Origin: a virus
IMG/VR virus record: IMGVR_UViG_3300024344_000004
Coordinates: 237-64,236 of that record
Strand: one strand, 5' to 3'
DNA: 64,000 nt
The notes below the pieces were generated by a model. That model was not told where the DNA came from. It saw only the letters and a program-made list of their open reading frames with translations, and did no database searches. This document shows positions 4,987-58,975 of the stretch, piece after piece (position 1 is the stretch's first letter; each line of letters starts with the position of its first letter). The position numbers and the translations under genes are program-made.

Positions 4987-5109
4987 TAGAATTCACCTCC
5001 TTTTGCTATTTTATTGTGGGTATATACCATTTTTTCACCTTTTGTTTTTTTTGTGTCGACTTCCAGTACGTTACACTTCACTCGTTACCTTTAAATTAAC
5101 TCGTCTTAC

Positions 5110-5123
5110 TATATAAAGCTTTT
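5110..5123 (-). promoter_or_regulatory. Archaeal BRE-TATA promoter for tail tube operon
   Basis: Minus strand AAAAGCTTTATATA, same motif as the other promoters in this genome. Confidence 0.7.
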
Positions 5124-5125
5124 GC

Positions 5126-6808
5126 TTAATACTGATTAGCTCCTCCCCGTCTGAAAGCAGCAACACCAGCTCTACGCGAAGTTACTAAAGGAGATATAGA
5201 AAAGTTATAACCAGTCTCTGTCATACCTGTTCCTCTCCATGTATCGTCCATTACATCACTCCACACACCCAATAGATGTTTGCGTGGATTTCCTTTGTCA
5301 TCTCCAAATATCCATTCGCTAGAAATAGTAGTTCCTTGTCTATTACCTTTTGGTCCGGGACCAACTGCACGATACCAATCTTTTGTTAAATCATTACTTT
5401 GTTGTAATAATGCTTGATACCAATTAGCAAATGCCTGAGTAGATTGAGGGTTGTTATAATAGTCATTGATTTGTTGCCTTAGGTTTTCGGCTATTTGTGT
5501 AGTAGTTAAATGTATTTTTCCTCCAGTTCCTGCTATATTGAGTTGTATATTATTAAAAAAATCTAAAGCCAGACCAGCTGTAGAAAATTCTCCTGTTCTT
5601 TCTACCCTATCTAATGTAGAAACTGATACAGCATTAGCTTCGTTGTGAGCTAAAAAAGCGATTTCTGAAATTAAAGTTGCACCTACTGAGTTTTGGCTTA
5701 ACATCCAATCAGTAAAAGCATTTATAACATTTCCATCCAAAGCAGCTACAACTGCTACATTATCGCTATCAAAACCAATCTGAGGCATACCATTTTCATA
5801 CAGTGGATAAAATGTAGCAAAACCAATAGTACTTGGTGTTAAGGTAACTTGATAAACATGCCTGATAGGCTCTAATGCTCTACCTGCACTGTCCATCATA
5901 GTTTGACTTCTACCCACCCTATTTAAAAACTGTCTCATATCATAAGCGGCAGTGCCTCTAGTTGCAGAAGAAAACATGCCTTTAGCCATCTCAAAGTCTC
6001 TACCTGACATCGTAGCATTGTAACCAAAAGAAGTCCATTCATTAGCTATACGTGTATTCCATTCATTTATATTTTGTTGAATGTGTGTAGTCCATGTAGA
6101 CACAGCACTTGCTAAATCTGTTTCTGAAGTATCTATTTGTGCTAAAATCTTATGGCTAGCACTACCACCTGCATCTCTAGCAACTTCAGCACTTTGTATG
6201 TTTAGATTTTGTGGTAATTCTGATTGAATAAACCTTCTAAAGGAATCATGCTCTTCTAAAAATATATCGAAATCCTGAGACCGACCAAAGTCACCCGACC
6301 TATCAAATGCTTGGCCTGATTGGTCATCATTACCTTCAAGTGCTGAATATAAATTACTTAGCATACCTATTTCAATTTCATCTCTTATACGACTATTTAG
6401 AGCAACAGAACCGGGACGAGCACTTGCACTATCTAATAACTCTTGAAGTTGTTGTCCCATTATGTCTGAAGAAGCTTGACCAGCAATACCTCTAGCAGAA
6501 GCAAGAGCAACATCTTCTCTCGGCATCATAGCACTCATTATACGTGTACGACCTGCTCCTTTACCTTGATAAATCTGTCTTCTTAAAACATAAGGATATC
6601 CATCACGTTCATTATCACCCAAAGAAGAATCATCTTGAGGAGATAAATCGAAATAACCCTCACTTGAAGCTCCAGCTACTGTAGGTGTAGTACCTCTCAG
6701 TTGCATTGCATAAGCTTGTGTAAAAGGTAAGTAGGGTTGAAAACCAACTGAGATACTTCTGAATACATTTTGTTCACCAAACTGCTCAATCATTCTGACA
6801 TTAGGCAT
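5126..6808 (-). CDS. Uncharacterised virion/neck-region protein
   Basis: 560 aa between the putative terminator and the tail tubes; no motif recognised. Confidence 0.5.
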   Translation of the reverse strand: MPNVRMIEQFGEQNVFRSISVGFQPYLPFTQAYAMQLRGTTPTVAGASSEGYFDLSPQDDSSLGDNERDGYPYVLRRQIYQGKGAGRTRIMSAMMPREDVALASARGIAGQASSDIMGQQLQELLDSASARPGSVALNSRIRDEIEIGMLSNLYSALEGNDDQSGQAFDRSGDFGRSQDFDIFLEEHDSFRRFIQSELPQNLNIQSAEVARDAGGSASHKILAQIDTSETDLASAVSTWTTHIQQNINEWNTRIANEWTSFGYNATMSGRDFEMAKGMFSSATRGTAAYDMRQFLNRVGRSQTMMDSAGRALEPIRHVYQVTLTPSTIGFATFYPLYENGMPQIGFDSDNVAVVAALDGNVINAFTDWMLSQNSVGATLISEIAFLAHNEANAVSVSTLDRVERTGEFSTAGLALDFFNNIQLNIAGTGGKIHLTTTQIAENLRQQINDYYNNPQSTQAFANWYQALLQQSNDLTKDWYRAVGPGPKGNRQGTTISSEWIFGDDKGNPRKHLLGVWSDVMDDTWRGTGMTETGYNFSISPLVTSRRAGVAAFRRGGANQY

Positions 6809-34627: not shown

Positions 34628-34864
34628 ATGAGCAAAAACTTATGTGGTAAGACACGCAAGACTGATGACCCTTATGAGGTCTGGACTGGCCCACGTGGCT
34701 TTGAATGGAGAGTATTAAAAAAATACCAGAACGCTGAGAACGAAGCAAAGAATCCTCACGCCAGATGGTTCTGTGCTGTTAAGTCAGACTTTACCTATGG
34801 TTCTTTTGAACTTGGTGATGTGTATGTCAGTGAGATTAAGAGCATGGGGGAAAAGCTTATATAG
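34628..34864 (+). CDS. Small conserved-looking phage protein (PYEVW...WRVLKKYQ...RWFCAVKS...ELGDVY)
   Basis: 78 aa, leaderless. Confidence 0.7.
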   Translation: MSKNLCGKTRKTDDPYEVWTGPRGFEWRVLKKYQNAENEAKNPHARWFCAVKSDFTYGSFELGDVYVSEIKSMGEKLI

Positions 34865-34886
34865 GGATACCCTATTGGTTATTATC

Positions 34887-35294
34887 GAGTGGGGAGCCCA
34901 AATTACCCCCACTCACTTATGGTTATCGGCCATAACACGTGACCTGAACTTAAAGACAAGAATAGACCATACGCCAACATACGACAAGCAATAACAAACT
35001 CAAGCTGAACAAGTGCTGACCAATCCCTTTCCGGTCGATGCGCATCTTAGTTGATTAACGACGTGTAGCTAAAATTTTGTATCACCTTTTGCCTCACTGA
35101 TTCCCTGTTATAAACTTAAGCGTATACAGCTATGAAGGAATTCTCTTTATCTTTTAGTGTCTCCGTCTCCTGACCGTTCGCGGTTTGACTCGGAGCAGGT
35201 CACACCCTAATGGACAAAACCTAGTTTGTCCTGTGGCAACCGCTCCTCAAGGTAGGCTTTAAATTCTAATTAGAGCCTTGGGTGAAGTTGCCAC
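34887..35294 (+). ncRNA. Candidate structured ncRNA B with its own promoter
   Basis: TATA 34857-34863; starts with GAGTGGGG/CCCCACTC stem; ends with GTGGCAAC/GTTGCCAC stem + T5; no credible ORF. Confidence 0.7.
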
Positions 35295-35295
35295 T

Positions 35296-35326
35296 TTTTC
35301 CACTCTTGTGAAAAAAGCTTTATATA
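35296..35326 (+). promoter_or_regulatory. Palindrome + BRE-TATA, copy 4
   Basis: ttttccactcttgtgaaaaaagctttatata; ATG at 35348. Confidence 0.85.
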
Positions 35327-35347
35327 GGGGTAGCCCCTTGGTAATAC

Positions 35348-35587
35348 ATGAGCCAAGCAACTCAGACTAAGACCAATCTTCCTTGGAAGAATGGAAGCAA
35401 GGAGGTCGACTACTACGTAGAAATCGGCACGACTCCGTATGGAAAATACGGATTATACAAAGAAATGATTCCTGTCGGCACAGGGAGCAGAGGAAGACAC
35501 ATGGAACTCGCTCGTGAGATTCGTCTGTCCAATCCAGAAATCTTTGAGGATTTAGAACTAAGACAAGTTGTCAGTAGGAGCAGATAA
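35348..35587 (+). CDS. Hypothetical protein
   Basis: 79 aa, leaderless. Confidence 0.65.
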   Translation: MSQATQTKTNLPWKNGSKEVDYYVEIGTTPYGKYGLYKEMIPVGTGSRGRHMELAREIRLSNPEIFEDLELRQVVSRSR

Positions 35588-35965: not shown

Positions 35966-36260
35966 TGAGCAAGTCAGAAAACTGCTCACCTTATATTTAT
36001 GGAAGTAGCTCTTCCGTAATCGGGTATGGCCGAACAAGTCCGCCACGGACTAAGGCACAGGACTGCGCAAACCGAGAAGCGACTGCTGGAGGAATGCAAA
36101 ACTGGTATGGGTTCTACTATGTAGTGGCATAAACCCATTGGAGGTATACATTAAATCCTCCTACCCATCCTTACATTGACGCCCCTTGACTTCCGTTATC
36201 GAATGCAAAAACATCGAGGAAGGAATGCTTTACCACCGGTGGTATATAAGTCAGGGGCTC
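35966..36260 (+). ncRNA. Candidate structured ncRNA C
   Basis: Serial hairpins TGAGC/GCTCA, GGAAG/CTTCC, AGTCC/GGACT, ATGGGTT/AACCCAT, GGAGG/CCTCC and terminal GCCCCTTGACTT/AAGTCAGGGGC before a T-run. Confidence 0.6.
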
Positions 36261-36832: not shown

Positions 36833-37508
36833 ATGACTATGACCGACATCGACACATTAGCAATACAACTAAAAAGCATGACTGCCAAACAGTTACAACA
36901 ACTGTTAAGTGCAACCCCGAACCGAGACGGTTCCGCAATCAAAGCCCGTAAGATACGTGCAACTGAGACATACTTCAGGAATGTAAAGAACAATGGATTA
37001 TATCCACATAACTTTGAGTCCTTCCCTCAGTTCAGAGAGGTCTTACCTTGAGTGACGTAATCGTTAAGTTCAATAACTACATGACTCAGCACACAGACAA
37101 AGTCCCTTTGTTAAGTGTTCAGTCAACTGATGATAAACGTTTCACAGTGCTGAGGGAATTATTAAATTCCGTCTTCGATGATGTAGAAGACAATGCTTGG
37201 TCAGTATCAGTGAACTTAGGAAAGTTCGTAGATGCCCTCAGCACAATGGAACAAAAAGATATAGATACTATATCACGAACAGTGAAGAAGTATCAAGTCA
37301 AAGGCACTTCGAGTGGTATCTCAGGTGAGAGAACCTATGGATATGACCGAAGCCGTGTTGACCGTAAGATGATTAGAAGAAGGAGAGCCAACTGATGAAC
37401 TGCGTAGATTGTGGTGAATACAGTTGGACTGATAATGGTGGACATGAAATAAATAAATCATGTTGTGAACACTGTTTAGTAAATGATTATATAACAGGTG
37501 AACTATGA
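36833..37508 (+). CDS. Three small early ORFs (36833-37051, 37048-37395, 37395-37508 Zn-finger)
   Basis: Promoter aaacgcttatatagg near 36800; overlapping junctions; last ORF MNCVDCGE...CCEHC. Confidence 0.6.
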
Positions 37509-38683
37509 GTAGAAGAGAAGGAAGACCATCACCAACTGAGTCAGCTACTGAGTTCCCTCTACACTATGAACGTGTAGGCGGAGACGGTAGATATTGGCAC
37601 GTAAGTGAAGACAAGCGTGGAGTAAGAAGATGGAAGAAGGGATTATATCATGGTTCAGATGAGGATAAACTTCTCAGTTCAACAACCGAAACGCTTATAA
37701 AGGATGATATATCTGGAGATACAATGGAAGACAAAACCGACCACAGAGGACTCGACAGTCTATTCGACCGAGACAGTCCCATGCCAGCAGAGGAACCTAC
37801 CCCCGAAGAAGTGGTAGAAGTAGAGAAAGACACAGTGATGTCTAAACTAAGAGGGTCAGTCAATGTGCCCGAAGAGTTTAAATTCGCTGATGACATGACA
37901 TTCTATACTATGTTGAGAAACATATTTAGAGGTAAGAACATTCTTATCACAGGTCCCTCAGGATGTGGTAAGTCAAGTCTCGGTAAGATATTAGCTGATA
38001 TCACTGCAAAAGACTTTTATAGTTTTAACTTCGGTGACACTATGAATCCCTCAGCTAAGTTATTGGGTGACACTAAGTATGATAAAGAAGCCGGAACATG
38101 GTTCAAACCATCTCGGTTCGTCAATGCAATACAAGGTGATTCATTCATTATGTTAGATGAGGTAACACGTGACCGAACAGGTGACTTAGCTAACATTCTC
38201 ATGCCGGTATTAGATGGTCAAAAGTATTTAGCTCTCGATGAGAGTGAAGATAGTGATACTGTCTCAGTTAGTAAAGGTGCGTTCTTTTACGCTACTGCTA
38301 ACATAGGTAGAGAGTATCTCGGTGCATCTCATGATTTAGACCGAGCATGGAAAGATAGATTCACAGGTGGTATATATGAATTAGAATACTTACCACCACA
38401 GAAAGAGAAAGAACTGATACAGAACAGAAACCCTCAGCTTACAGACTACGATGCTGATAAGATTGTAGACTTTGCTAAGAGAGTGCGTGACTTACATTCT
38501 TCAGACGAACTCAATACTGCTGTTTCAACACGTATGTGTTTAGCATCAGCTGAGTTAGTTGTTGATGGGATGCCTTTAGTCGATGCACTGAAACACACCT
38601 GTTTACCGTTCTACCCTGTTCAGGGTGGTGACGATACTGAGAGAGTTCGTATTATACAAGTTATTCAATCAATGGGTGAATAG
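37505..38683 (+). CDS. MoxR/CbbQ-NirQ-NorQ-type AAA+ ATPase with an N-terminal extra domain
   Basis: GPSGCGKS, IMLDEVTR, FYATANIGREY, LDRAWKDRF, STRMCL; internal TATA 37695-37701 and ATG 37724. Confidence 0.88.
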   Translation: MSRREGRPSPTESATEFPLHYERVGGDGRYWHVSEDKRGVRRWKKGLYHGSDEDKLLSSTTETLIKDDISGDTMEDKTDHRGLDSLFDRDSPMPAEEPTPEEVVEVEKDTVMSKLRGSVNVPEEFKFADDMTFYTMLRNIFRGKNILITGPSGCGKSSLGKILADITAKDFYSFNFGDTMNPSAKLLGDTKYDKEAGTWFKPSRFVNAIQGDSFIMLDEVTRDRTGDLANILMPVLDGQKYLALDESEDSDTVSVSKGAFFYATANIGREYLGASHDLDRAWKDRFTGGIYELEYLPPQKEKELIQNRNPQLTDYDADKIVDFAKRVRDLHSSDELNTAVSTRMCLASAELVVDGMPLVDALKHTCLPFYPVQGGDDTERVRIIQVIQSMGE

Positions 38684-39070
38684 ATGGTTAAGAAGAAAGT
38701 ATTACGTAGAAAGCACACATATTGGCATCAGTTGGCTAAGTTCCTTATACTGAATGGTTACAAACCAACAATGATAGGAAAGATAATCAAGGATGTATTT
38801 CCCGAGACTGAGGTCAATGGTAGACACGTAGGTGCATACAAACGTAGATTGATACAAGATGAGGATATTCTCATCCCAAACAAACCAACTATGAATATCA
38901 ATGAAGTAAGAGAAATAGCTGAAGGCTTAGTTACTAACGAAGATATGTTTATATATAAATGTGTTATCGGTTCAGCTAAGAGAAGTCTTAAGTGCTTCGA
39001 GTATAAGTTCCGTAGTGAGGATAAAGATTTAGTAAGTGAGGTAGATAAATGGATTATGGCGATTCAATAG
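38684..39070 (+). CDS. Hypothetical, possible HTH protein
   Basis: 128 aa between AAA and vWA genes. Confidence 0.5.
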   Translation: MVKKKVLRRKHTYWHQLAKFLILNGYKPTMIGKIIKDVFPETEVNGRHVGAYKRRLIQDEDILIPNKPTMNINEVREIAEGLVTNEDMFIYKCVIGSAKRSLKCFEYKFRSEDKDLVSEVDKWIMAIQ

Positions 39071-41163
39071 ATGAATGGACTGAGGACAGTGAAAATGATT
39101 TCTGTTATGCGTGTGACGATTGGACTGATGCCGACGGTCATGGCAACTGTAAAGATTGTGGCAACAGTTACACTACAGTAGACCCATTCGTCAGTCCGAC
39201 TATAGCAAAGACATACAGTTCACCCGCACCTACTGTCTCAGCACATGGTGACCTTTGGAATAGGGGTTCGGGTTTCACATGGGGTGGTAGTTCATATTGG
39301 TCCGGTGGTGGAGCTACATCATGGGGTGGTTGGTCTCAGTCTACAAACGACAGTGCTCGTATGCTTAAACATAAAAGACATTTAGATTCTCTTTGTAAAG
39401 TAGTAGACCCAACTGTAAAGCATTCATTACATTTCGCAACTGAGTCGAAGAACTATTCGAACATGTCTAATGGAACTATATATGTAGATGGGACTCTCAT
39501 TGAACACGATGATGACAAACTCGACATATTAGCTGGTCTCTCAATACATGAGAAGTTACACTTAGTTCATACTCAACCATTAACTAAATGGGAACGTGAG
39601 TATAGTCACCAAAACAATCTTAGTTCAGCACAGGAAAGATTACTACATAACATATGTAATATCATAGAAGATGAATATATAGAATCTCAGTTAGCTAAGA
39701 CTCATGCCGGATACACTATGTATATTGAGAAGGTTAAACAACACTTCTTTGGTAAGCATGGTCACAAGATAGATGAGTTCAACGGTAATCCTATCGCTGA
39801 CATAATGAATACATTGTTAGCTATGGTAAGATATCCACAATCTATCTCAGCTGACCGTAGAAAGAAACACGCTAAGCATATTCAGTTCTTTGCCCGTGCG
39901 TTAACAGATGCATTAACTGATAGACATTCAACCTTTATGGCTATGGATAGTATTTATTGTTATATGAATCAACTCGCTAAAGAAGAAGCAGAGAAGCATG
40001 AAGGCACCGACGAAGAAGAAATACTACGACGTGCTGATGACAGGCTCAAAGACCTTTTAGGTGAGTGGGGTGAATCAGTTGGTGAAGAAATGTCAGCTGA
40101 AGACATGGAACGTATCAAAGATAGACTTATAGAAAAAGAACGTGACGAAGCTGAACGTGGTGATAGATATGACCGTAAAGAGAAATTGTCTCGAGCTTTG
40201 GATAAGTTCGCAAAAGAACTCGCTGATTATGGTTTAGATAGAGACACTATTTCAGATGCACTCGGTAGAGATATAGATGAGTTAGCTGACAGTGACTATA
40301 CTGAAGAGAAGTGGGATGTGTCCCGTGCTCTCGGTTTGAAACAAGGTGGTAAAGTTACATGGCGTAATCAAAGAGCCTCTTCAGACTATGATAAGAGTAA
40401 ATACACTGAGGCTGAAAGAAATATGAAATCAGCAATTGGTCAACTAAAGAGAAAGATACAACTATATGGTGACACACGTATTAACACCATTCGTAACCAA
40501 CGAAGAGGTAAGTTAGATAAACGTATGCTACATAAGATACCTCTCGGTCGACCCGACTTATTCAAGAATGTAATTATTGACGAAGACAAGCCACTCGATG
40601 TATGTCTCTTAGTCGATGAGTCAGGTAGTATGGGTTCATGGAAGATGGCTAAAGCACGTGAGACTGCGATTGCTTTACGTGAATCACTCAAAGATAATCA
40701 AGCTCTCAACTTATGGGTGTTTGGTCACACAGCTGACGGTTATGAATGGGATGGTAAAGGTGACACTAATATGTCAGTATATTGGTCACCTACATATAAA
40801 TCAGATATAAAGGCTATGGGTGCTATGACAGCACGTAGTGAAAACAGAGATGGTATGGCTATTCTCGCATCAGCTGAAAGAGTCAAAGCTGAGTCACCAT
40901 CAATGGGTAGCAATAAACTTATGATTGTTATCTCAGACGGTGAACCATCAGCAGACAAATACAGATTCCCAATCAGTGTGCCACATACTAAGAAGTGTGT
41001 CAGACACATTGAGGGACAGGGATGGAATGTAATTCAAATAGGCATCTCAGGTGCACGTGAATATATTATGAAAGATATGTTTACTAATTACATCCTGTGT
41101 GATGATACAGCTGACTTACCAACTAAGGTAAGTAAAGTAATTAGAAGGGTGATAAAAGTATGA
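39049..41163 (+). CDS. vWA-domain protein with HExxH motif and N-terminal CxxC pair (CobT-like partner of the AAA)
   Basis: HEKLH; MIDAS LLVDESGSM; LMIVISDGEP; CYAC...CKDC. Confidence 0.85.
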   Translation: MDYGDSIDEWTEDSENDFCYACDDWTDADGHGNCKDCGNSYTTVDPFVSPTIAKTYSSPAPTVSAHGDLWNRGSGFTWGGSSYWSGGGATSWGGWSQSTNDSARMLKHKRHLDSLCKVVDPTVKHSLHFATESKNYSNMSNGTIYVDGTLIEHDDDKLDILAGLSIHEKLHLVHTQPLTKWEREYSHQNNLSSAQERLLHNICNIIEDEYIESQLAKTHAGYTMYIEKVKQHFFGKHGHKIDEFNGNPIADIMNTLLAMVRYPQSISADRRKKHAKHIQFFARALTDALTDRHSTFMAMDSIYCYMNQLAKEEAEKHEGTDEEEILRRADDRLKDLLGEWGESVGEEMSAEDMERIKDRLIEKERDEAERGDRYDRKEKLSRALDKFAKELADYGLDRDTISDALGRDIDELADSDYTEEKWDVSRALGLKQGGKVTWRNQRASSDYDKSKYTEAERNMKSAIGQLKRKIQLYGDTRINTIRNQRRGKLDKRMLHKIPLGRPDLFKNVIIDEDKPLDVCLLVDESGSMGSWKMAKARETAIALRESLKDNQALNLWVFGHTADGYEWDGKGDTNMSVYWSPTYKSDIKAMGAMTARSENRDGMAILASAERVKAESPSMGSNKLMIVISDGEPSADKYRFPISVPHTKKCVRHIEGQGWNVIQIGISGAREYIMKDMFTNYILCDDTADLPTKVSKVIRRVIKV

Positions 41164-43702: not shown

Positions 43703-44302
43703 ATGAAAGACATAATGAAAGAATACAGCACAACATTCTACGAATGTTTAGATGCGTGGCCAGATGATATCAAAGAAGATATATACAAACTATATGCATA
43801 CCTCAGAGTGTGTGATGAGATGGTCGAAGGTGAGAAGACACTACATGACTTCAAGAATTGGAGAGATGTTATAGAACAGTTCTATGAAGTTAGTGATAAG
43901 TATCAGTTCGATGGTCAATGGTTAGCTGACTTCCACGTCAGTATGTATCAAGATATGGTAAAGAAAGAACACACAATTGTATCTATGTTAGATTACTGTA
44001 AAGGTTCAGCTGAATCAGTTGGTATGATGATGTCTAAGATATTAGGATGTAACCCACGTTGTGAGATACACGCAAGGGCTCTCGGCAGAGCTTATCAGAT
44101 TATTAACTTCATAAGAGATTATGATGAGGATGTAGCCAATGGTTATCATTACATCACTGATAACTTCAGTGCATACTTAGAGATATTTTATCAAGACATA
44201 GATAATGGTATGGATGGTTTAAATTATATTCCAGAAGAGTTACAAGAGCCTATCATAATGGCTACTAAAAAATATATGGAAGTAGCGGGTGAATTCAACT
44301 AA
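43703..44302 (+). CDS. Compact phytoene/squalene synthase-family protein (CrtB-like)
   Basis: YSTTFY, LYAYLRVCDEMVE, SMYQDM, YCKGSAESVGMMM, ALGRAYQIINFIRDYDED. Confidence 0.8.
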   Translation: MKDIMKEYSTTFYECLDAWPDDIKEDIYKLYAYLRVCDEMVEGEKTLHDFKNWRDVIEQFYEVSDKYQFDGQWLADFHVSMYQDMVKKEHTIVSMLDYCKGSAESVGMMMSKILGCNPRCEIHARALGRAYQIINFIRDYDEDVANGYHYITDNFSAYLEIFYQDIDNGMDGLNYIPEELQEPIIMATKKYMEVAGEFN

Positions 44303-46436: not shown

Positions 46437-46643
46437 ATGGCAGAAAAAAATAGCTTAGAACTAACAGCCGGATTGTTCCGGAACACTGATAAGAACGGAA
46501 ACATCTACTACTCAGGTAAGTCCGAAGGTGGAGATGAATATGTTATGTTCAGGAATACCTATTGGAAAGAAGGAAGTAACAAACCATACTTCAGACTAAT
46601 GAAAAGAACTGATGGAGCATCTACTCCAACAGTGGAGGACTAA
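46437..46643 (+). CDS. Small beta protein, possibly ssDNA-binding (DUF736-like)
   Basis: GLFRNTDKNGNIYYSG...VMFRN...KPYFRL pattern; GGAGG SD. Confidence 0.45.
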   Translation: MAEKNSLELTAGLFRNTDKNGNIYYSGKSEGGDEYVMFRNTYWKEGSNKPYFRLMKRTDGASTPTVED

Positions 46644-46644
46644 A

Positions 46645-47016
46645 ATGTATGGAAGAGATGCAGACCGTATGATGGATATGTGGTTGGACTTACTATCACA
46701 GATAGAACAAGTTCCCTCAGGCCGTCATGCCCTATCTACACTAAGTAGAAAGGATGTCTCAGTAAATGTAGAGAATGGCACCATAACAATCACAGCTGAA
46801 TTAGCTGGTTTGGATAAAGAACAGGTTGATGTGGAAGTCAGTAGTAGAACAGTCACTATCGTAGCCAACTCAGAGAGAAAGAACTTCAAATGGGAAGAGA
46901 CTTTTCTATTTGAGTTAGACCCAGAGTCTACAAAAGCTACTATGGTGAATGGTATACTAGACTTAGTCATAGAAAAGAAAGTGAAGACATCAGCTAAGAA
47001 AGTAGAGATAGAATGA
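46645..47016 (+). CDS. Small heat-shock protein (HSP20/alpha-crystallin)
   Basis: ITAELAGLDKEQVDVEV...DPESTKATMVNGILDL. Confidence 0.88.
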   Translation: MYGRDADRMMDMWLDLLSQIEQVPSGRHALSTLSRKDVSVNVENGTITITAELAGLDKEQVDVEVSSRTVTIVANSERKNFKWEETFLFELDPESTKATMVNGILDLVIEKKVKTSAKKVEIE

Positions 47017-47763: not shown

Positions 47764-49236
47764 ATGAAAAAATATGAAATATACGATTTGCTAAGATATT
47801 TTCACAATGCAAAGAAAAAAGACGGAACACTTTTCCCTATACTAGGAGAGGATTCGTTAGCTCTAACTACAAGTCTATCTTACTTGTTAGAAGATACTAA
47901 CTTCTGTATTAAAGCATACAGTGGAACAGGTAAGACTGTATTGATGGAAGCTGTGGCAAACCTACTTCCAGAGGAGTATGTCTACTCAGTAGAACATATG
48001 TCAGAGACAGCAATATGGTATGATGAGGATAAAATCAACAAAGCTAGATTTGTTTTTATTCCAGAAGCACAAAAGATACCAGAGGGTGTCATGGAAATCA
48101 TTAAAACATGGGCAGACGGGCGAACAGCCCAACGTAAAAAGACAGATGTTACTATCAAGATGGCAGTAACACAGTGGTTAAAACCTAAATATGTTTTGAT
48201 GGCAGTAGCAGTAGAGAATGATAAAGGTTCAGCTATGTTTGATGCTGAGTTAGAACGTAGATGTATGATTATGCATACAAACCCTACAGTCAAACAGACA
48301 GAAAGAGTTATCAAACATAAACTTTTACATTCAGCTTCACCAAAAGCCTCTATGTCTTCAATGTCAGATAAAGAAATAAAAGATTTAAAGAAACACATAC
48401 TAACTACATTGAGAGAAAGAGACGAAGATGATGCGACTGTATTAAAGAATCCATGCGCCCCATTTCTATTTGACGCAATACCATCAGCATTCCCTGTATC
48501 ACGGTCGAAGGTTCAGTATCTATTGAAGTTGATTAATGCTATAGCAAGGTTTTATCCAGATGAGATAGTTAAAGTCAAACAAGATGGTATACAATATGGA
48601 CTAGTATCACCTAAACATAACTGGCTCGGACTGAGAATATATCTTAACTCATTTGTAGAAGAATGCTTACATATGCCAAGTCATGGAACAGACATACTTA
48701 AACTATTTCCCGAAACTAGATTAGATAGGTTTGGTTTTGCAGATAGTGAGACAGTTAAGATGTCAGAGAATGAATTGAAAAAGGCTGCTAAATCAGCTGG
48801 TCTACCATTTACCAAATTAAGACCAGTTATAGCAGGTTTAATGATGACAGGGTTCTTAGAGTGTGATGAAGAAGGAAGTAAAAAACTTTACTATAAGAGC
48901 CCACTCATTACAGAACCAGTATCAAAAATAAATTGGAGTGATTTAATTGAAGAAACGAAAGAGTTTATACGAAAAGAGTGGCCTAAAGTATCTGATGAAT
49001 ACATTGGGCGCAGTTGTAGCAGTATCAGGATTGTTGACCCGTTTAGTGGGGACAACATTGAACTGGGTGCGAGAGCAGAGACAGCGGTAGAAGTTGACAC
49101 TGGTGATTATCCGTCAGTGTTCAAGTCTTCTAGTGACGCTAAGATTAAAGACTACGAGTCTTTTCTACTAAATGCAGAGGGAGATTACAATGACGAAGAA
49201 GACAAAGCAGTCAGAGAATACTTTCAGAAGAAGTAG
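47764..49236 (+). CDS. MCM-like AAA+ P-loop NTPase/replicative helicase
   Basis: AYSGTGKT Walker A, FIPEAQK variant Walker B, ELERR arginine finger. Confidence 0.7.
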   Translation: MKKYEIYDLLRYFHNAKKKDGTLFPILGEDSLALTTSLSYLLEDTNFCIKAYSGTGKTVLMEAVANLLPEEYVYSVEHMSETAIWYDEDKINKARFVFIPEAQKIPEGVMEIIKTWADGRTAQRKKTDVTIKMAVTQWLKPKYVLMAVAVENDKGSAMFDAELERRCMIMHTNPTVKQTERVIKHKLLHSASPKASMSSMSDKEIKDLKKHILTTLRERDEDDATVLKNPCAPFLFDAIPSAFPVSRSKVQYLLKLINAIARFYPDEIVKVKQDGIQYGLVSPKHNWLGLRIYLNSFVEECLHMPSHGTDILKLFPETRLDRFGFADSETVKMSENELKKAAKSAGLPFTKLRPVIAGLMMTGFLECDEEGSKKLYYKSPLITEPVSKINWSDLIEETKEFIRKEWPKVSDEYIGRSCSSIRIVDPFSGDNIELGARAETAVEVDTGDYPSVFKSSSDAKIKDYESFLLNAEGDYNDEEDKAVREYFQKK

Positions 49237-49504
49237 ACTTCCTAAGCGAGATGAGATGTTTGCAGTAGTCATAGAGATGTCAGGGGGTTCTAGAATGAGA
49301 GCCCTCTGTGCAGACAGTAAAACCCGCATGATTAGAATCGGTGGTAAACTGAAGAAAAGAATGTGGTGTAGAGAGAATGATTTAATTATAGTTAAGCCTT
49401 GGGTTATACAGAGTGACCAAAAGGCAGACTTAGTTTATAGGTATCTCCCTACTGAGAGAAAGAATATAAGTAAAAAAATACCAGAGGAGTTAAACATATG
49501 GTGA
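49190..49504 (+). CDS. eif1a: Archaeal translation initiation factor aIF-1A (eIF1A)
   Basis: RLPKR.EMFAVV.EMSGGSRMRALC.D.KTRMIRIGGKLKKRMW.RE.DLIIVKPW..Q.DQKADLVYRY. Confidence 0.93.
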   Translation: MTKKTKQSENTFRRSRLPKRDEMFAVVIEMSGGSRMRALCADSKTRMIRIGGKLKKRMWCRENDLIIVKPWVIQSDQKADLVYRYLPTERKNISKKIPEELNIW

Positions 49505-57109: not shown

Positions 57110-58975
57110 ATGTTTAAGAACGAAGTAGCAGAATTTATATATAAAAGAACGTATTCACGTTGGTTAGAAGAAGAGAACAGGCGAGAAGATTGGCCTGAGA
57201 CGATAGAAAGATTTATTGGTTTTATAATTTCAGAAAGACCAGATATACCAGATAAGACTATTAACAAGATTAGAAAGTATATGTTAGAGTTTGCGGTAAT
57301 GCCATCGATGCGTTTCTTATGGGCAGCAGGTCCAGCAGCTAAAGCAGATAATACTTGCATATACAACTGCTCCTTTGCGAAAATTAATTCTGTTGAAGCA
57401 TTTGCAGAATGTTTATATGTATTAATGTGTGGTACTGGTTTTGGTTTCTCAGTTGAGAAAGAAGAAGTATCTAAATTACCAGAAGTACCAGAAATTAAAT
57501 CAGCACAAGGTAATGCTAAGTTTGTTATTGAAGATTCAAAAGCAGGTTGGGCAGACTCAGTTAAAGATTTAATGGGAAGTTTATACAAAGGACAAAATAT
57601 TTATTTTGATTATTCTAAAATAAGAGGTGAAGGAGCTAGACTTATGACTATGGGTGGTCGTGCATCTGGTCCTGCACCATTAGTTAAACTACACGATTTT
57701 ATTCGTGAAACTATGCACAACGCTCAAGGTAGAAAAATGACTACACTAGAAGCTCACGACATCTGTAACCAGATAGCTGAGATAGTTGTAGTAGGTGGAG
57801 TAAGACGTAGCTCCCAGATATCCTTGAGTGATTTAACTGATAAAGAAATGAGGCACGCAAAGGAATGGCCCTTTCCTATTAAGAGAGCAATGGCAAACAA
57901 CAGTGCTATCTACAGAGAAAAACCATCCGCAGCAGATTTTTTAATTGAATGGGGTGCGTTAGCTAAATCAGGAACAGGTGAGAGAGGTATATTTAATCTC
58001 TCCTCAGCTCAAGCTAAAGCCCCTGCACGTCGTTACGCTCCACTCATACAGGGTACAAATCCTTGTGGAGAAATAATGTTACGAGATATGCAATTTTGTA
58101 ACCTTTCGGAAGTAGTAGTAAGAGAAGACGATGACCTTGATACGTTGTTAGACAAGGTTGAGACAGCAACATGGCTTGGTGTTATACAAAGTTCTTTCAC
58201 AAATTTTCCATATCTCAGAAAAGAGTGGAAAAAGAATTGTGACGTAGAAGCGCTTCTAGGTGTCAGTTTGACAGGTCAGATGGATAACCCTTCGATATTA
58301 ACATCAGAGGCATTAGCGGCCCTTAAAAGCCGTGTTTTACGTATATCTCGTAAATCATCTGGTATACTAGGAACTAAAATGCCAGCAGCGACCACTTGTG
58401 TAAAGCCATCAGGAACTGTTTCACAGCTTGTAGACTCAGCGTCTGGAGTTCACCCAAGATATTCTCAGTATTATATCCGTCGTTACAGAATTGCGGCTCG
58501 TGACCCACTGTTTAATTTAATGAAAGATAGTGGTATAAAATGTAACCCAGAGAATGGACAGAATAAAAAAGACGCTAGTACATGGGTACTAGAATTCCCA
58601 GTCAAATCACCAGACGGTTGTGTTACTAGAAAGGATGTGTCTGCTTTAGACCAATTAAAACATTATAAAAACTTACAACACAATTGGTGTGAACACAATG
58701 CTAGTATGACTGTATATGTTAGAGATGATGAATGGTTCGAAGTTGGTAATTGGGTGTATCAAAATTGGGAAATTATAAACGGAGTATCTTTCTTACCTTA
58801 CTCAGGTGGTAAGTATAAATTAGCTCCATATGAAGAAATTGACCACAGAACCTACGAAAGGCTTATAAAGGCTCAACCCGTAATTGATTATAAGCAATTG
58901 TCACAATATGAGACTCAAGACAATACCCAAGGTAAGTCTGAGTTTGCTTGTGTTGGAGATAAGTGTGAAATCTAA
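57110..58975 (+). CDS. nrdJ: Class II (B12-dependent) ribonucleotide reductase
   Basis: RTYSRW, PSMR, YNCSF, TNPCGEI, FCNLSEV, TCVKPSGT, C-terminal CVGDKC; no beta subunit gene. Confidence 0.93.
   Translation: MFKNEVAEFIYKRTYSRWLEEENRREDWPETIERFIGFIISERPDIPDKTINKIRKYMLEFAVMPSMRFLWAAGPAAKADNTCIYNCSFAKINSVEAFAECLYVLMCGTGFGFSVEKEEVSKLPEVPEIKSAQGNAKFVIEDSKAGWADSVKDLMGSLYKGQNIYFDYSKIRGEGARLMTMGGRASGPAPLVKLHDFIRETMHNAQGRKMTTLEAHDICNQIAEIVVVGGVRRSSQISLSDLTDKEMRHAKEWPFPIKRAMANNSAIYREKPSAADFLIEWGALAKSGTGERGIFNLSSAQAKAPARRYAPLIQGTNPCGEIMLRDMQFCNLSEVVVREDDDLDTLLDKVETATWLGVIQSSFTNFPYLRKEWKKNCDVEALLGVSLTGQMDNPSILTSEALAALKSRVLRISRKSSGILGTKMPAATTCVKPSGTVSQLVDSASGVHPRYSQYYIRRYRIAARDPLFNLMKDSGIKCNPENGQNKKDASTWVLEFPVKSPDGCVTRKDVSALDQLKHYKNLQHNWCEHNASMTVYVRDDEWFEVGNWVYQNWEIINGVSFLPYSGGKYKLAPYEEIDHRTYERLIKAQPVIDYKQLSQYETQDNTQGKSEFACVGDKCEI

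Follow-up and report, generated by a model that had tools for sequence, protein, structure and literature searches.

A probable stand-alone RNA gene, conserved and structured, in a marine virus lineage with a probably archaeal host

What is encoded by the roughly 415 nucleotides (nt) that separate two small protein genes in the early region of an uncultured marine virus? The question is raised by the IMG/VR virus record IMGVR_UViG_3300024344_000004 (69,348 bp), most of which, positions 237 to 64,236, forms the 64,000-nt stretch that we analyzed and call the window. An earlier note on this DNA had proposed that a dedicated RNA gene, called RNA B, lies between the genes for two proteins of 78 and 79 amino acids (aa) and has its own TATA promoter and terminator. 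We conclude, with a probability of about 80%, a figure that excludes mechanism, that 34885-35299 of the (+) strand is a conserved, structured, non-coding RNA gene. The proposal of a dedicated RNA gene is supported by covariation, by the lack of a coding signal, by a conserved promoter that is not followed by an ATG, by a hairpin at the 3′ end and by contigs from RNA libraries. The layout given in the earlier note, a unit running from promoter to terminator, also holds, with three corrections: one of its stems was wrong, the RNA is built of modules, and no terminator follows the 78-aa gene. The RNA constitutes a new family within the broad class of orphan ornate viral RNAs, and the marine virus lineage that carries it is probably archaeal.

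Relatives were gathered from IMG/VR by means of both flanking small genes, and from metagenomes by protein alignment with the 79-aa protein; the metagenome search gave 174 hits, from which 80 loci were fetched, and the counts below rest on these 80 and the IMG/VR loci. A profile of the stretch detected homologues of the RNA in about 17 IMG/VR contigs and in every fetched marine metagenome locus that has enough flanking sequence, always directly 5′ of the 79-aa gene and oriented like it. There are 65 distinct homologous sequences, with one copy per genome, and the length is about 415 nt in the window and about 330-430 nt in relatives. A loose pattern of the 3′ hairpin matched 118 loci in IMG/VR, mostly by chance, and brought no further family members, and two more specific patterns returned from IMG/VR only the same lineage and one probable chance match (L244). 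Searches of 185,579 species genomes with the 79-aa gene and with a 24-position pattern of the RNA were both negative and gave neither a host nor a provirus copy.

The (+) strand of the stretch folds better than its shuffles (z = -3.65, 0 of 100 shuffles as good), and the fold of the (-) strand is unremarkable (z = -1.92). RNAalifold predicted 35 pairs, 18 of them compensatory, from 16 sequences, and 26 pairs, 16 of them compensatory, from 63 core sequences. The helix model combines RNAalifold with a scan of column pairs, and variable hairpins were compared by variant class. In the resulting core model of 37 pairs, 98.4% of the cells are canonical and 21 pairs show double-sided changes, whereas 500 column shuffles gave 84.3 ± 0.4% canonical cells and 14.3 double-change pairs (maximum 19), all below the real values, and slid registers of the same model gave 30-46% canonical cells. 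Because several helices contain G-U pairs, one of which is invariant (35172-35185), the structure is assigned to the RNA of the (+) strand. The covariation check that the earlier note had called for thus revealed strong compensatory change on the (+) strand in 60-65 distinct homologues.

The core consists of at least six covarying helices, including a long-range helix that closes it, and is flanked by optional 5′ and 3′ hairpins (Table 1). The 5′ hairpin P1 is present in 40 of 63 homologues and missing from 23; its stem variants include GAGUGGGG/CCCCACUC, GAGCGGGG/CCCCGCUC and GAGAGAG/CUCUCUC. In P2 a compensatory change from UG/CA to CA/UG was found, and the alternative apexes are often perfect palindromes. 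The Px hairpin carries a loop of UUCG, GAAA or AUAU, an invariant internal loop C..UGA/UUUG, and the invariant wobble G35172-U35185, which is valid on the (+) strand only. The variable hairpin near the 3′ end is missing from 10 of 65 homologues. Among the stems that the earlier note had listed, GAGTGGGG/CCCCACTC lies where it was placed and is P1, again with no ATG at the expected start, GGACAAA/TTTGTCC is likewise in its place as the variable hairpin, and TGACC/GGTCA turned out to be part of the 8-bp long-range helix. The stem ACACGT/ACGTGT (34935-40/35061-66) found no support; both of its halves belong to covarying helices, P3 and P7.

Table 1. Features of the RNA gene and its surroundings; positions are those of the window, except for the manA loci of relatives, which carry their own numbering.
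Feature	Position	Strand	Remark
BRE/TATA-like promoter element AAAGCTTATATAGG	34852..34865	+	shares sequence with the end of the 78-aa gene (last codons and TAG stop)
Promoter-proximal element (CCCTATTGGTTATTA-type)	34869..34884	+	common to protein-gene promoters, where it abuts the ATG
Predicted transcription start (± about 2 nt)	34885	+	20 nt after TATAGG; spacing of leaderless promoters
P1 hairpin, optional module	34887..34914 (34887-94/34907-14)	+	at least 6 stem sequences, all self-complementary
P2 hairpin UUAUGG/CCAUAA	34917..34935 (34917-22/34930-35)	+	other hairpins substitute in relatives
Conserved core domain	34939..35203	+	closed by long-range 8-bp helix P3 (34939-46/35196-203)
P5	34991-96/35106-11	+	core helix
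P8	35022-24/35074-76	+	core helix
P7	35032-37/35059-65	+	core helix
Perfect palindrome GAUGCGCAUC	35037..35046	+	fixed place inside P7
Px hairpin	35161..35195	+	stacked on P3; 12 pairs, 9 with double-sided changes
Variable hairpin GGACAAA/UUUGUCC, optional module	35212..35231	+	unrelated hairpins of other lengths replace it in relatives
Terminal hairpin GTGGCAAC 35233-35240 / GTTGCCAC 35287-35294	35233..35294	+	invariant internal loop, CRC opposite GAA
U5 run, likely 3′ end	35295..35299	+	also begins the TTTTCCAC-N4-GTGAAAAA palindrome preceding the next promoter
78-aa gene, leaderless, upstream neighbor	34628..34864	+	no family match; no terminator before the RNA
79-aa gene, leaderless, downstream neighbor	35348..35587	+	own promoter 35315-35328; no family match
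manA in relatives	L002 4647-4821; L005 4651-4824; L009 4651-4822; L017 4651-4822; L013 1633-1804		Rfam match

Does the RNA have a promoter of its own? The window holds 22 copies of the promoter motif AARSYTTATAWAGR, where 2.0 are expected (11-fold enrichment; 0 of 100 shuffles reach 22). Early promoters share a layout of TTTTCCAC-N4-GTGAAAAA, an A-rich stretch, CTTTATATAGG and a proximal element YTATTGGTAWTAY, which is followed by the ATG. In at least nine early-region genes the ATG lies 18-19 nt 3′ of the TATAGG motif, and the genome has about 12 such leaderless promoters. The center of the box is about 26 nt ahead of the A of the ATG in these leaderless early genes, the spacing seen in archaeal leaderless genes. 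The proximal element of the protein-gene promoters resembles an extended -10 box, yet it abuts the ATG, so that a start by bacterial polymerase would fall 3′ of the start codon; sigma-70-type promoters are not enriched.

Ahead of the RNA, a TATA-like octamer is preceded by a purine-rich B-recognition element (BRE), AAAAG-CTTATATA at 34852-34863, as in an archaeal core promoter. The pattern TTA[TA]A[TA]AG persists in 63 of 65 homologues while the overlapping C-terminal residues of the 78-aa protein vary (EKLI, VKLK, ERVK). The TATA and the proximal elements are conserved in 63 of 65, the latter lying 3′ of the stop codon and thus free of coding constraint. At the position where leaderless genes have the A of the ATG, the RNA reads TCGAG (AGAG in relatives), and an ATG is found there in only 1 of 65 homologues. 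The predicted start, 34885, is 25.5 nt from the center of the box; we infer that transcription starts about 25 nt 3′ of the BRE/TATA-like box. The promoter shares with archaeal BRE/TATA promoters the A-rich BRE, a TTTATATA-type box centered about 26 nt before the start, the AT-rich proximal element and a pyrimidine/purine step at -1/+1. It differs from them in that its box overlaps the end of a protein gene; its start site is a predicted one, and TBP and TFB are its putative binding partners. The claim of the earlier note that the TATA promoter has the spacing of the leaderless protein promoters is borne out, since the design is the same, and a viral homologue of the translation factor aIF-1A, described below, adds to the archaeal support. 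The stop and the last four codons of the 78-aa gene (34852-34864) are embedded in the TATA box of the RNA promoter. We also observed a near-palindrome, TTTTCCAC-N4-GTG(G)AAAA, directly 5′ of early promoters at about 33444, 34000, 34577 and 35296 (+); in some relatives the dyad is perfect (TCCAC-GCTT-GTGGA in L013). Besides providing the T-run of the unit before it, this element could serve a dimeric regulator as its operator.

Public sequencing runs give a weak hint that is consistent with expression. Most of a 1.4-kb stretch around the RNA is contained in 14 DNA runs (seawater, vent, subsurface and viral fraction), and part of the RNA is contained in 17 runs that are on record as RNA; RNA runs with small word shares were not counted. 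RNA-library contigs of four studies, which correspond to four of the 17 runs, map within 34885-35252. One of them, 181 nt long, starts exactly at the predicted start, 34885, which is a weak hint, as contigs cannot prove ends, in favor of the start that the earlier note had expected at about 34887. Contig depth is 39-73 over the RNA and about 4 over the 79-aa gene of a relative, values that cannot rank expression. One run has no contig on the 78-aa gene and several have none past 35252, which is no evidence either way, since contigs drop low-depth parts and the runs were found via the RNA itself.

Several points weigh against a dedicated RNA gene in an archaeal virus. The RNA-library data are assembled contigs that cannot show ends, strand or level and in which DNA carry-over is possible, and another RNA-library contig bridges 34805-34892, from the end of the 78-aa gene to P1; the RNA may thus also, or only, be made as a 3′ extension of the 78-aa gene mRNA. 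The TATA element overlaps coding sequence, so the protein could account for part of its conservation. The interior of the core, 34947-35160, is only partly modelled. A search of the window for antisense targets longer than 10 nt of the conserved unpaired segments stayed at chance level and found none. As to the host, the genome also has the manA RNA, CobS/CobT and Hsp20, all of which are typical of cyanophages too.

One alternative we consider unlikely: the RNA would be a structured 3′ untranslated tail of the 78-aa gene mRNA, possibly a processed stable fragment, and the promoter-like motif would be kept because it encodes the C-terminus. The overlap of the TATA-like motif with the last four codons and the bridging contig would be expected of such a tail, as would the finding that there is neither a T-run nor a hairpin between the stop codon (34862-34864) and the RNA; because no terminator separates the two, read-through transcripts from the 78-aa gene probably carry the RNA too. 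A motif kept for the protein is hard to reconcile with C-terminal residues that vary while the TATA-like box does not, and the proximal element CCCTATTGGTAWTAC, which lies past the stop codon, is conserved as in the promoters of protein genes. Moreover, the contig that starts at 34885 is a high-depth one. Even as a 3′ tail, the RNA would not change in being a conserved structured element.

We then considered the other end of the RNA. The terminal hairpin is present in 55 of 65 homologues and covaries, with three pair types in the outer stem and at least eight in the inner stem, and a run of four or more T residues is found within 22 nt of it in 45 of the 55. The 10 short forms that lack the hairpin stop in TTTT(T)CCAC right after the core. 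These features point to an end of transcription at the oligo-U run past the hairpin. The unit was said to end in a hairpin plus TTTTT, and both are where they were placed (35295-35299 for the T-run).

A hairpin with a U5 run at the end of an RNA that always lies directly 5′ of the 79-aa gene, in the same orientation, could also be read as the conditional terminator of a cis-acting leader, a riboswitch or attenuator of that gene, and the presence of a riboswitch candidate, the manA RNA, in the same genome is in keeping with this. Nonetheless, we judge a cis-acting leader quite improbable. A complete, conserved promoter with leaderless spacing (35315-35328) stands between the RNA and the 79-aa gene, which is not the arrangement of a riboswitch, and the 10 homologues without a terminal hairpin simply end at the T-run that follows the core. 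The core and the terminator showed no alternative pairing with each other, and a length of 330-430 nt far exceeds known riboswitch leaders.

The most unusual feature of the RNA is a segment inside P7 that is always palindromic. All 21 distinct P7 interiors (21 of 21) contain a perfect palindrome of 8-10 nt at a fixed site, in 12 variants with seven central tetramers, all of which are self-complementary. Adjacent central bases change together, from GCGC to GGCC and from UUAA to UAUA; adjacent central bases cannot pair with each other inside one hairpin. None of the P7 palindromes is predicted to form a stable hairpin alone, and the predicted self-duplexes have energies of -7 to -17 kcal/mol. 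In many variants a second palindrome lies about 14 nt further on. Perfect palindromes of at least 10 nt number 1.83 per RNA copy, as against 0.41 in shuffles, and coding controls show no such enrichment.

The enrichment in palindromes, and a location close to about 32 kb, where strand bias and the direction of transcription switch, might be taken as signs of an element that works as DNA (an origin of replication, a site for packaging or a group of dyads bound by proteins, for example), an idea to which we give very little credence. G-U pairs, which would be mismatches in DNA and on the opposite strand, are tolerated and even fixed in the helices; covariation extends to long-range helices 250 nt apart; and the z-score of the fold is strand-specific. 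A DNA-level role of the palindrome fits poorly because its self-complementarity is kept and its sequence is not: the sequence changes freely, unlike a site recognized by a protein.

The stretch 34885-35299 is non-coding. There is no (+) strand open reading frame (ORF) of 30 aa or more inside 34995-35277, and column variability in the RNA stretch has no 3-periodicity (0.77/0.77/0.69), whereas the adjacent 79-aa gene shows codon periodicity in the same alignment (0.51/0.31/1.03). ORFs in the RNA stretch differ between homologues in place, frame and strand, none being positionally conserved, and the spacers between anchors in the RNA vary by 1-2 nt. A conserved translated small ORF, which the earlier note had named as the finding that would speak against an RNA gene, is therefore absent, as is codon periodicity across homologues. 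That the stretch is a decayed or unrecognized small protein gene, with a frame open for 36 codons from ATC 34884 to 34994 in the window, or with short (-) strand ORFs, has a negligible chance of being right, even if many homologues have ORFs of 25-85 codons somewhere when GTG and TTG starts are allowed, given the signals just listed, the 23 homologues that lack the entire 5′ hairpin which the ATC frame would encode, and the start of the sole (-) strand ATG ORF of the window inside the variable palindrome.

What might a non-coding RNA gene of this kind do? We propose that the RNA would be a stand-alone product of the early region that acts in trans. It may serve as a folded scaffold or decoy early in infection that binds a host or viral protein, the likeliest role that we see, though with the odds against it. 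Binding of a protein would occur via the invariant internal loops, C..UGA/UUUG in Px and CRC/GAA in the terminal hairpin, and the RNA may also pair with its own copies through the palindrome in P7. Both invariant internal loops have the look of binding sites, and the palindrome that of a site of self-association.

The behavior of the P7 palindrome suggests pairing between two RNA copies as its simplest selective explanation. There are precedents in the dimerization sites of retroviruses and in the contacts, palindromic or kissing, of natural RNA multimers (PMC12990946, PMC12286853). Cofolding of the whole RNA yielded trivial domain swapping only and was uninformative. Tentatively, and with considerable doubt, we suggest that the RNA self-associates into a dimer or a larger assembly made of RNA only, in which the P7 palindrome joins the copies and to which the second palindrome may contribute. 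The fast turnover of its sequence, 12 variants of which several occur in one otherwise constant helix context, would then be a lineage-specific address that guards against mixed assemblies with co-infecting relatives. If this is correct, an archaeal virus would for the first time have provided an ornate RNA quaternary assembly. The dimerization initiation site of HIV-1 is a lineage-variable palindrome (GCGCGC or GUGCAC) in which self-complementarity is kept and through which two RNA copies pair. The likeness lies in a palindrome whose sequence varies, here in 12 variants at 35037-35046, and whose self-complementarity does not. The HIV-1 site differs in that its palindrome has 6 nt and sits in a hairpin loop of 9 nt in a genomic RNA, as against 8-10 nt in the interior of a junction of a non-genomic RNA for which dimerization is a proposal. 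Elsewhere in the window, a 14-nt perfect palindrome, TACCACCGGTGGTA, was observed at 36231-36244, 3′ of manA, and two 8-nt GC-rich palindromes (33815 and 33992) were seen in what the earlier note called ncRNA A. Palindromic hairpin tips may be a general habit of the RNAs of this virus.

The RNA does not belong to a family described in Rfam. The Rfam check that the earlier note had asked for was carried out with the 4227 models of Rfam 15, which include ROOL, GOLLD, OLE, HEARO, pRNA, 6S, SRP, RNase P, tmRNA, cobalamin and manA, and no family matches the RNA. With E up to 10, only a 14.9-bit chance match to Chlorobi-1 on the (-) strand was found in 34800-35400, and the loci of nine relatives matched manA only. 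A cobalamin riboswitch, considered because of the viral CobS/CobT and B12-dependent reductase, gave no Rfam signal. Mimicry of the 3′ end of 16S rRNA by AUCACCU at 35081-35087 was also considered; this motif is not conserved in relatives.

The pRNA of phi29 is a virus-encoded, stand-alone, structured RNA that has its own early promoter and multimerizes via intermolecular loop-loop pairing. RNA B resembles it in being virus-encoded, stand-alone and structured with an early promoter of its own. It differs in matching no Rfam family and in having self-complementary palindromes, whereas pRNA pairs two different complementary loops; further, pRNA belongs to a phi29-type packaging motor, and the virus studied here has a T4-type large terminase, so RNA B does not qualify as a pRNA. 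The phi29 pRNA appears among natural RNA multimers in PMC12990946. ROOL, GOLLD and OLE, large ornate RNAs of bacteria and of bacterial phages, form RNA-only homo-oligomers via kissing loops and related contacts (PMC12286853, PMC12990946). With RNA B they have in common that they are non-coding orphans that stand alone and are highly structured, with covariation in many helices, and ROOL and GOLLD are often found on phages or prophages. A further likeness is possible, in that the P7 palindrome could play the role of an oligomer contact, oligomerization being here a matter of inference. They are different from RNA B in that it matches none of them in Rfam even at E up to 10, in length (330-430 nt against 550-830) and in that its host is probably archaeal.

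Which host, then, does the virus infect? It is a tailed virus with a large terminase, a portal, an HK97-type capsid protein and a tape-measure protein on the (-) strand at 1-31.8 kb; among its packaging genes the large terminase is of the T4 type (PF03237) and the portal is an ordinary one. From about 32 kb the (+) strand carries the early and replication genes, which include CobS/CobT-like proteins, a family B DNA polymerase (PolB), a class II-type ribonucleotide reductase, Hsp20, MazG, RecU and a pyrimidine-dimer glycosylase. When the region was compared by blastn with 50,697 phage records, nothing matched, and tblastn with PolB and the large terminase found distant relatives only (28% identity or less) and no close cultured virus. 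The ORF at 49172-49504 (+) encodes a homologue of aIF-1A/eIF-1A (NCBIfam NF003084, 107.2 bits against a cut-off of 91; Pfam eIF-1a, E 1.8e-15). Because the virus encodes this homologue, an archaeal host is probable, and we read the host of the lineage as probably archaeal. The gene lies just 5′ of the MazG-like gene and the DNA polymerase; such a factor is notable in a virus with leaderless early genes. The auxiliary genes at 37505-41163, 43703-44302, 46612-47016 and 57110-58975 form a set typical of marine viruses: a CobS-like AAA ATPase with a VWA (CobT-like) protein, a short squalene/phytoene-synthase-like protein, Hsp20 and a B12-type ribonucleotide reductase.

The sole Rfam match in the window is a manA RNA (RF01745) at 35997-36171 (+), with 62.8 bits and E 7e-15, which corresponds to the ncRNA C of the earlier note. 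It lies about 650 nt 3′ of the start of the 79-aa gene and is kept in relatives (62.8-69.5 bits over the window and relatives together). Both manA and RNA B are structured RNAs of marine viruses that occur in the same genome, 700 nt apart with manA on the 3′ side, and in relatives. They are different in fold and sequence, RNA B scoring nothing for manA, and manA is classed among cis-regulatory candidates, in contrast to RNA B with a promoter and a terminator of its own. The manA RNA is known mainly from marine metagenomes and cyanophages (PMC2864571). Because manA is here found in a virus with an aIF-1A homologue and TATA-type promoters, archaeal viruses may be the source of some of the marine manA set.

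Large well-folded RNAs of unassigned function are rare, and ROOL, GOLLD, OLE, raiA and HEARO have each opened structural or mechanistic work. The RNA described here suits such follow-up: it is compact, has a clear promoter and end, covaries strongly and has RNA-library matches, and a large set of natural sequences is available from Tara Oceans and other ocean metagenomes. The palindrome provides a specific hypothesis of RNA self-assembly that can be tested cheaply. To our knowledge, almost no regulatory biology has been described for uncultured, probably archaeal, marine virus lineages, and this lineage, with its manA RNA and viral aIF-1A, may suit the study of how archaeal viruses take over their hosts via RNA and translation factors.

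The two neighboring proteins, of 78 and 79 aa, have no matches in Pfam, PHROGs or the protein atlas, and an AlphaFold2 model of the 79-aa protein was unusable (mean predicted local distance difference test score, pLDDT, 47.7). In three more distant relatives (L013 3880-4003, L016 3880-3997, L017 3905-3997) the 79-aa gene does have a leader, of about 75-100 nt and conserved across all three, which follows a TATA-like box of another kind. Another distant relative, L028, carries a recognizable 3′ half of the RNA core (5096-5213, on the (-) strand of the locus) in the opposite orientation to its homologue of the 78-aa gene, which is 72% identical. A 25-nt stretch of this half core is identical to the Px hairpin of the window, and the 79-aa gene was not found in L028. 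The RNA family may thus be wider and mobile between positions.

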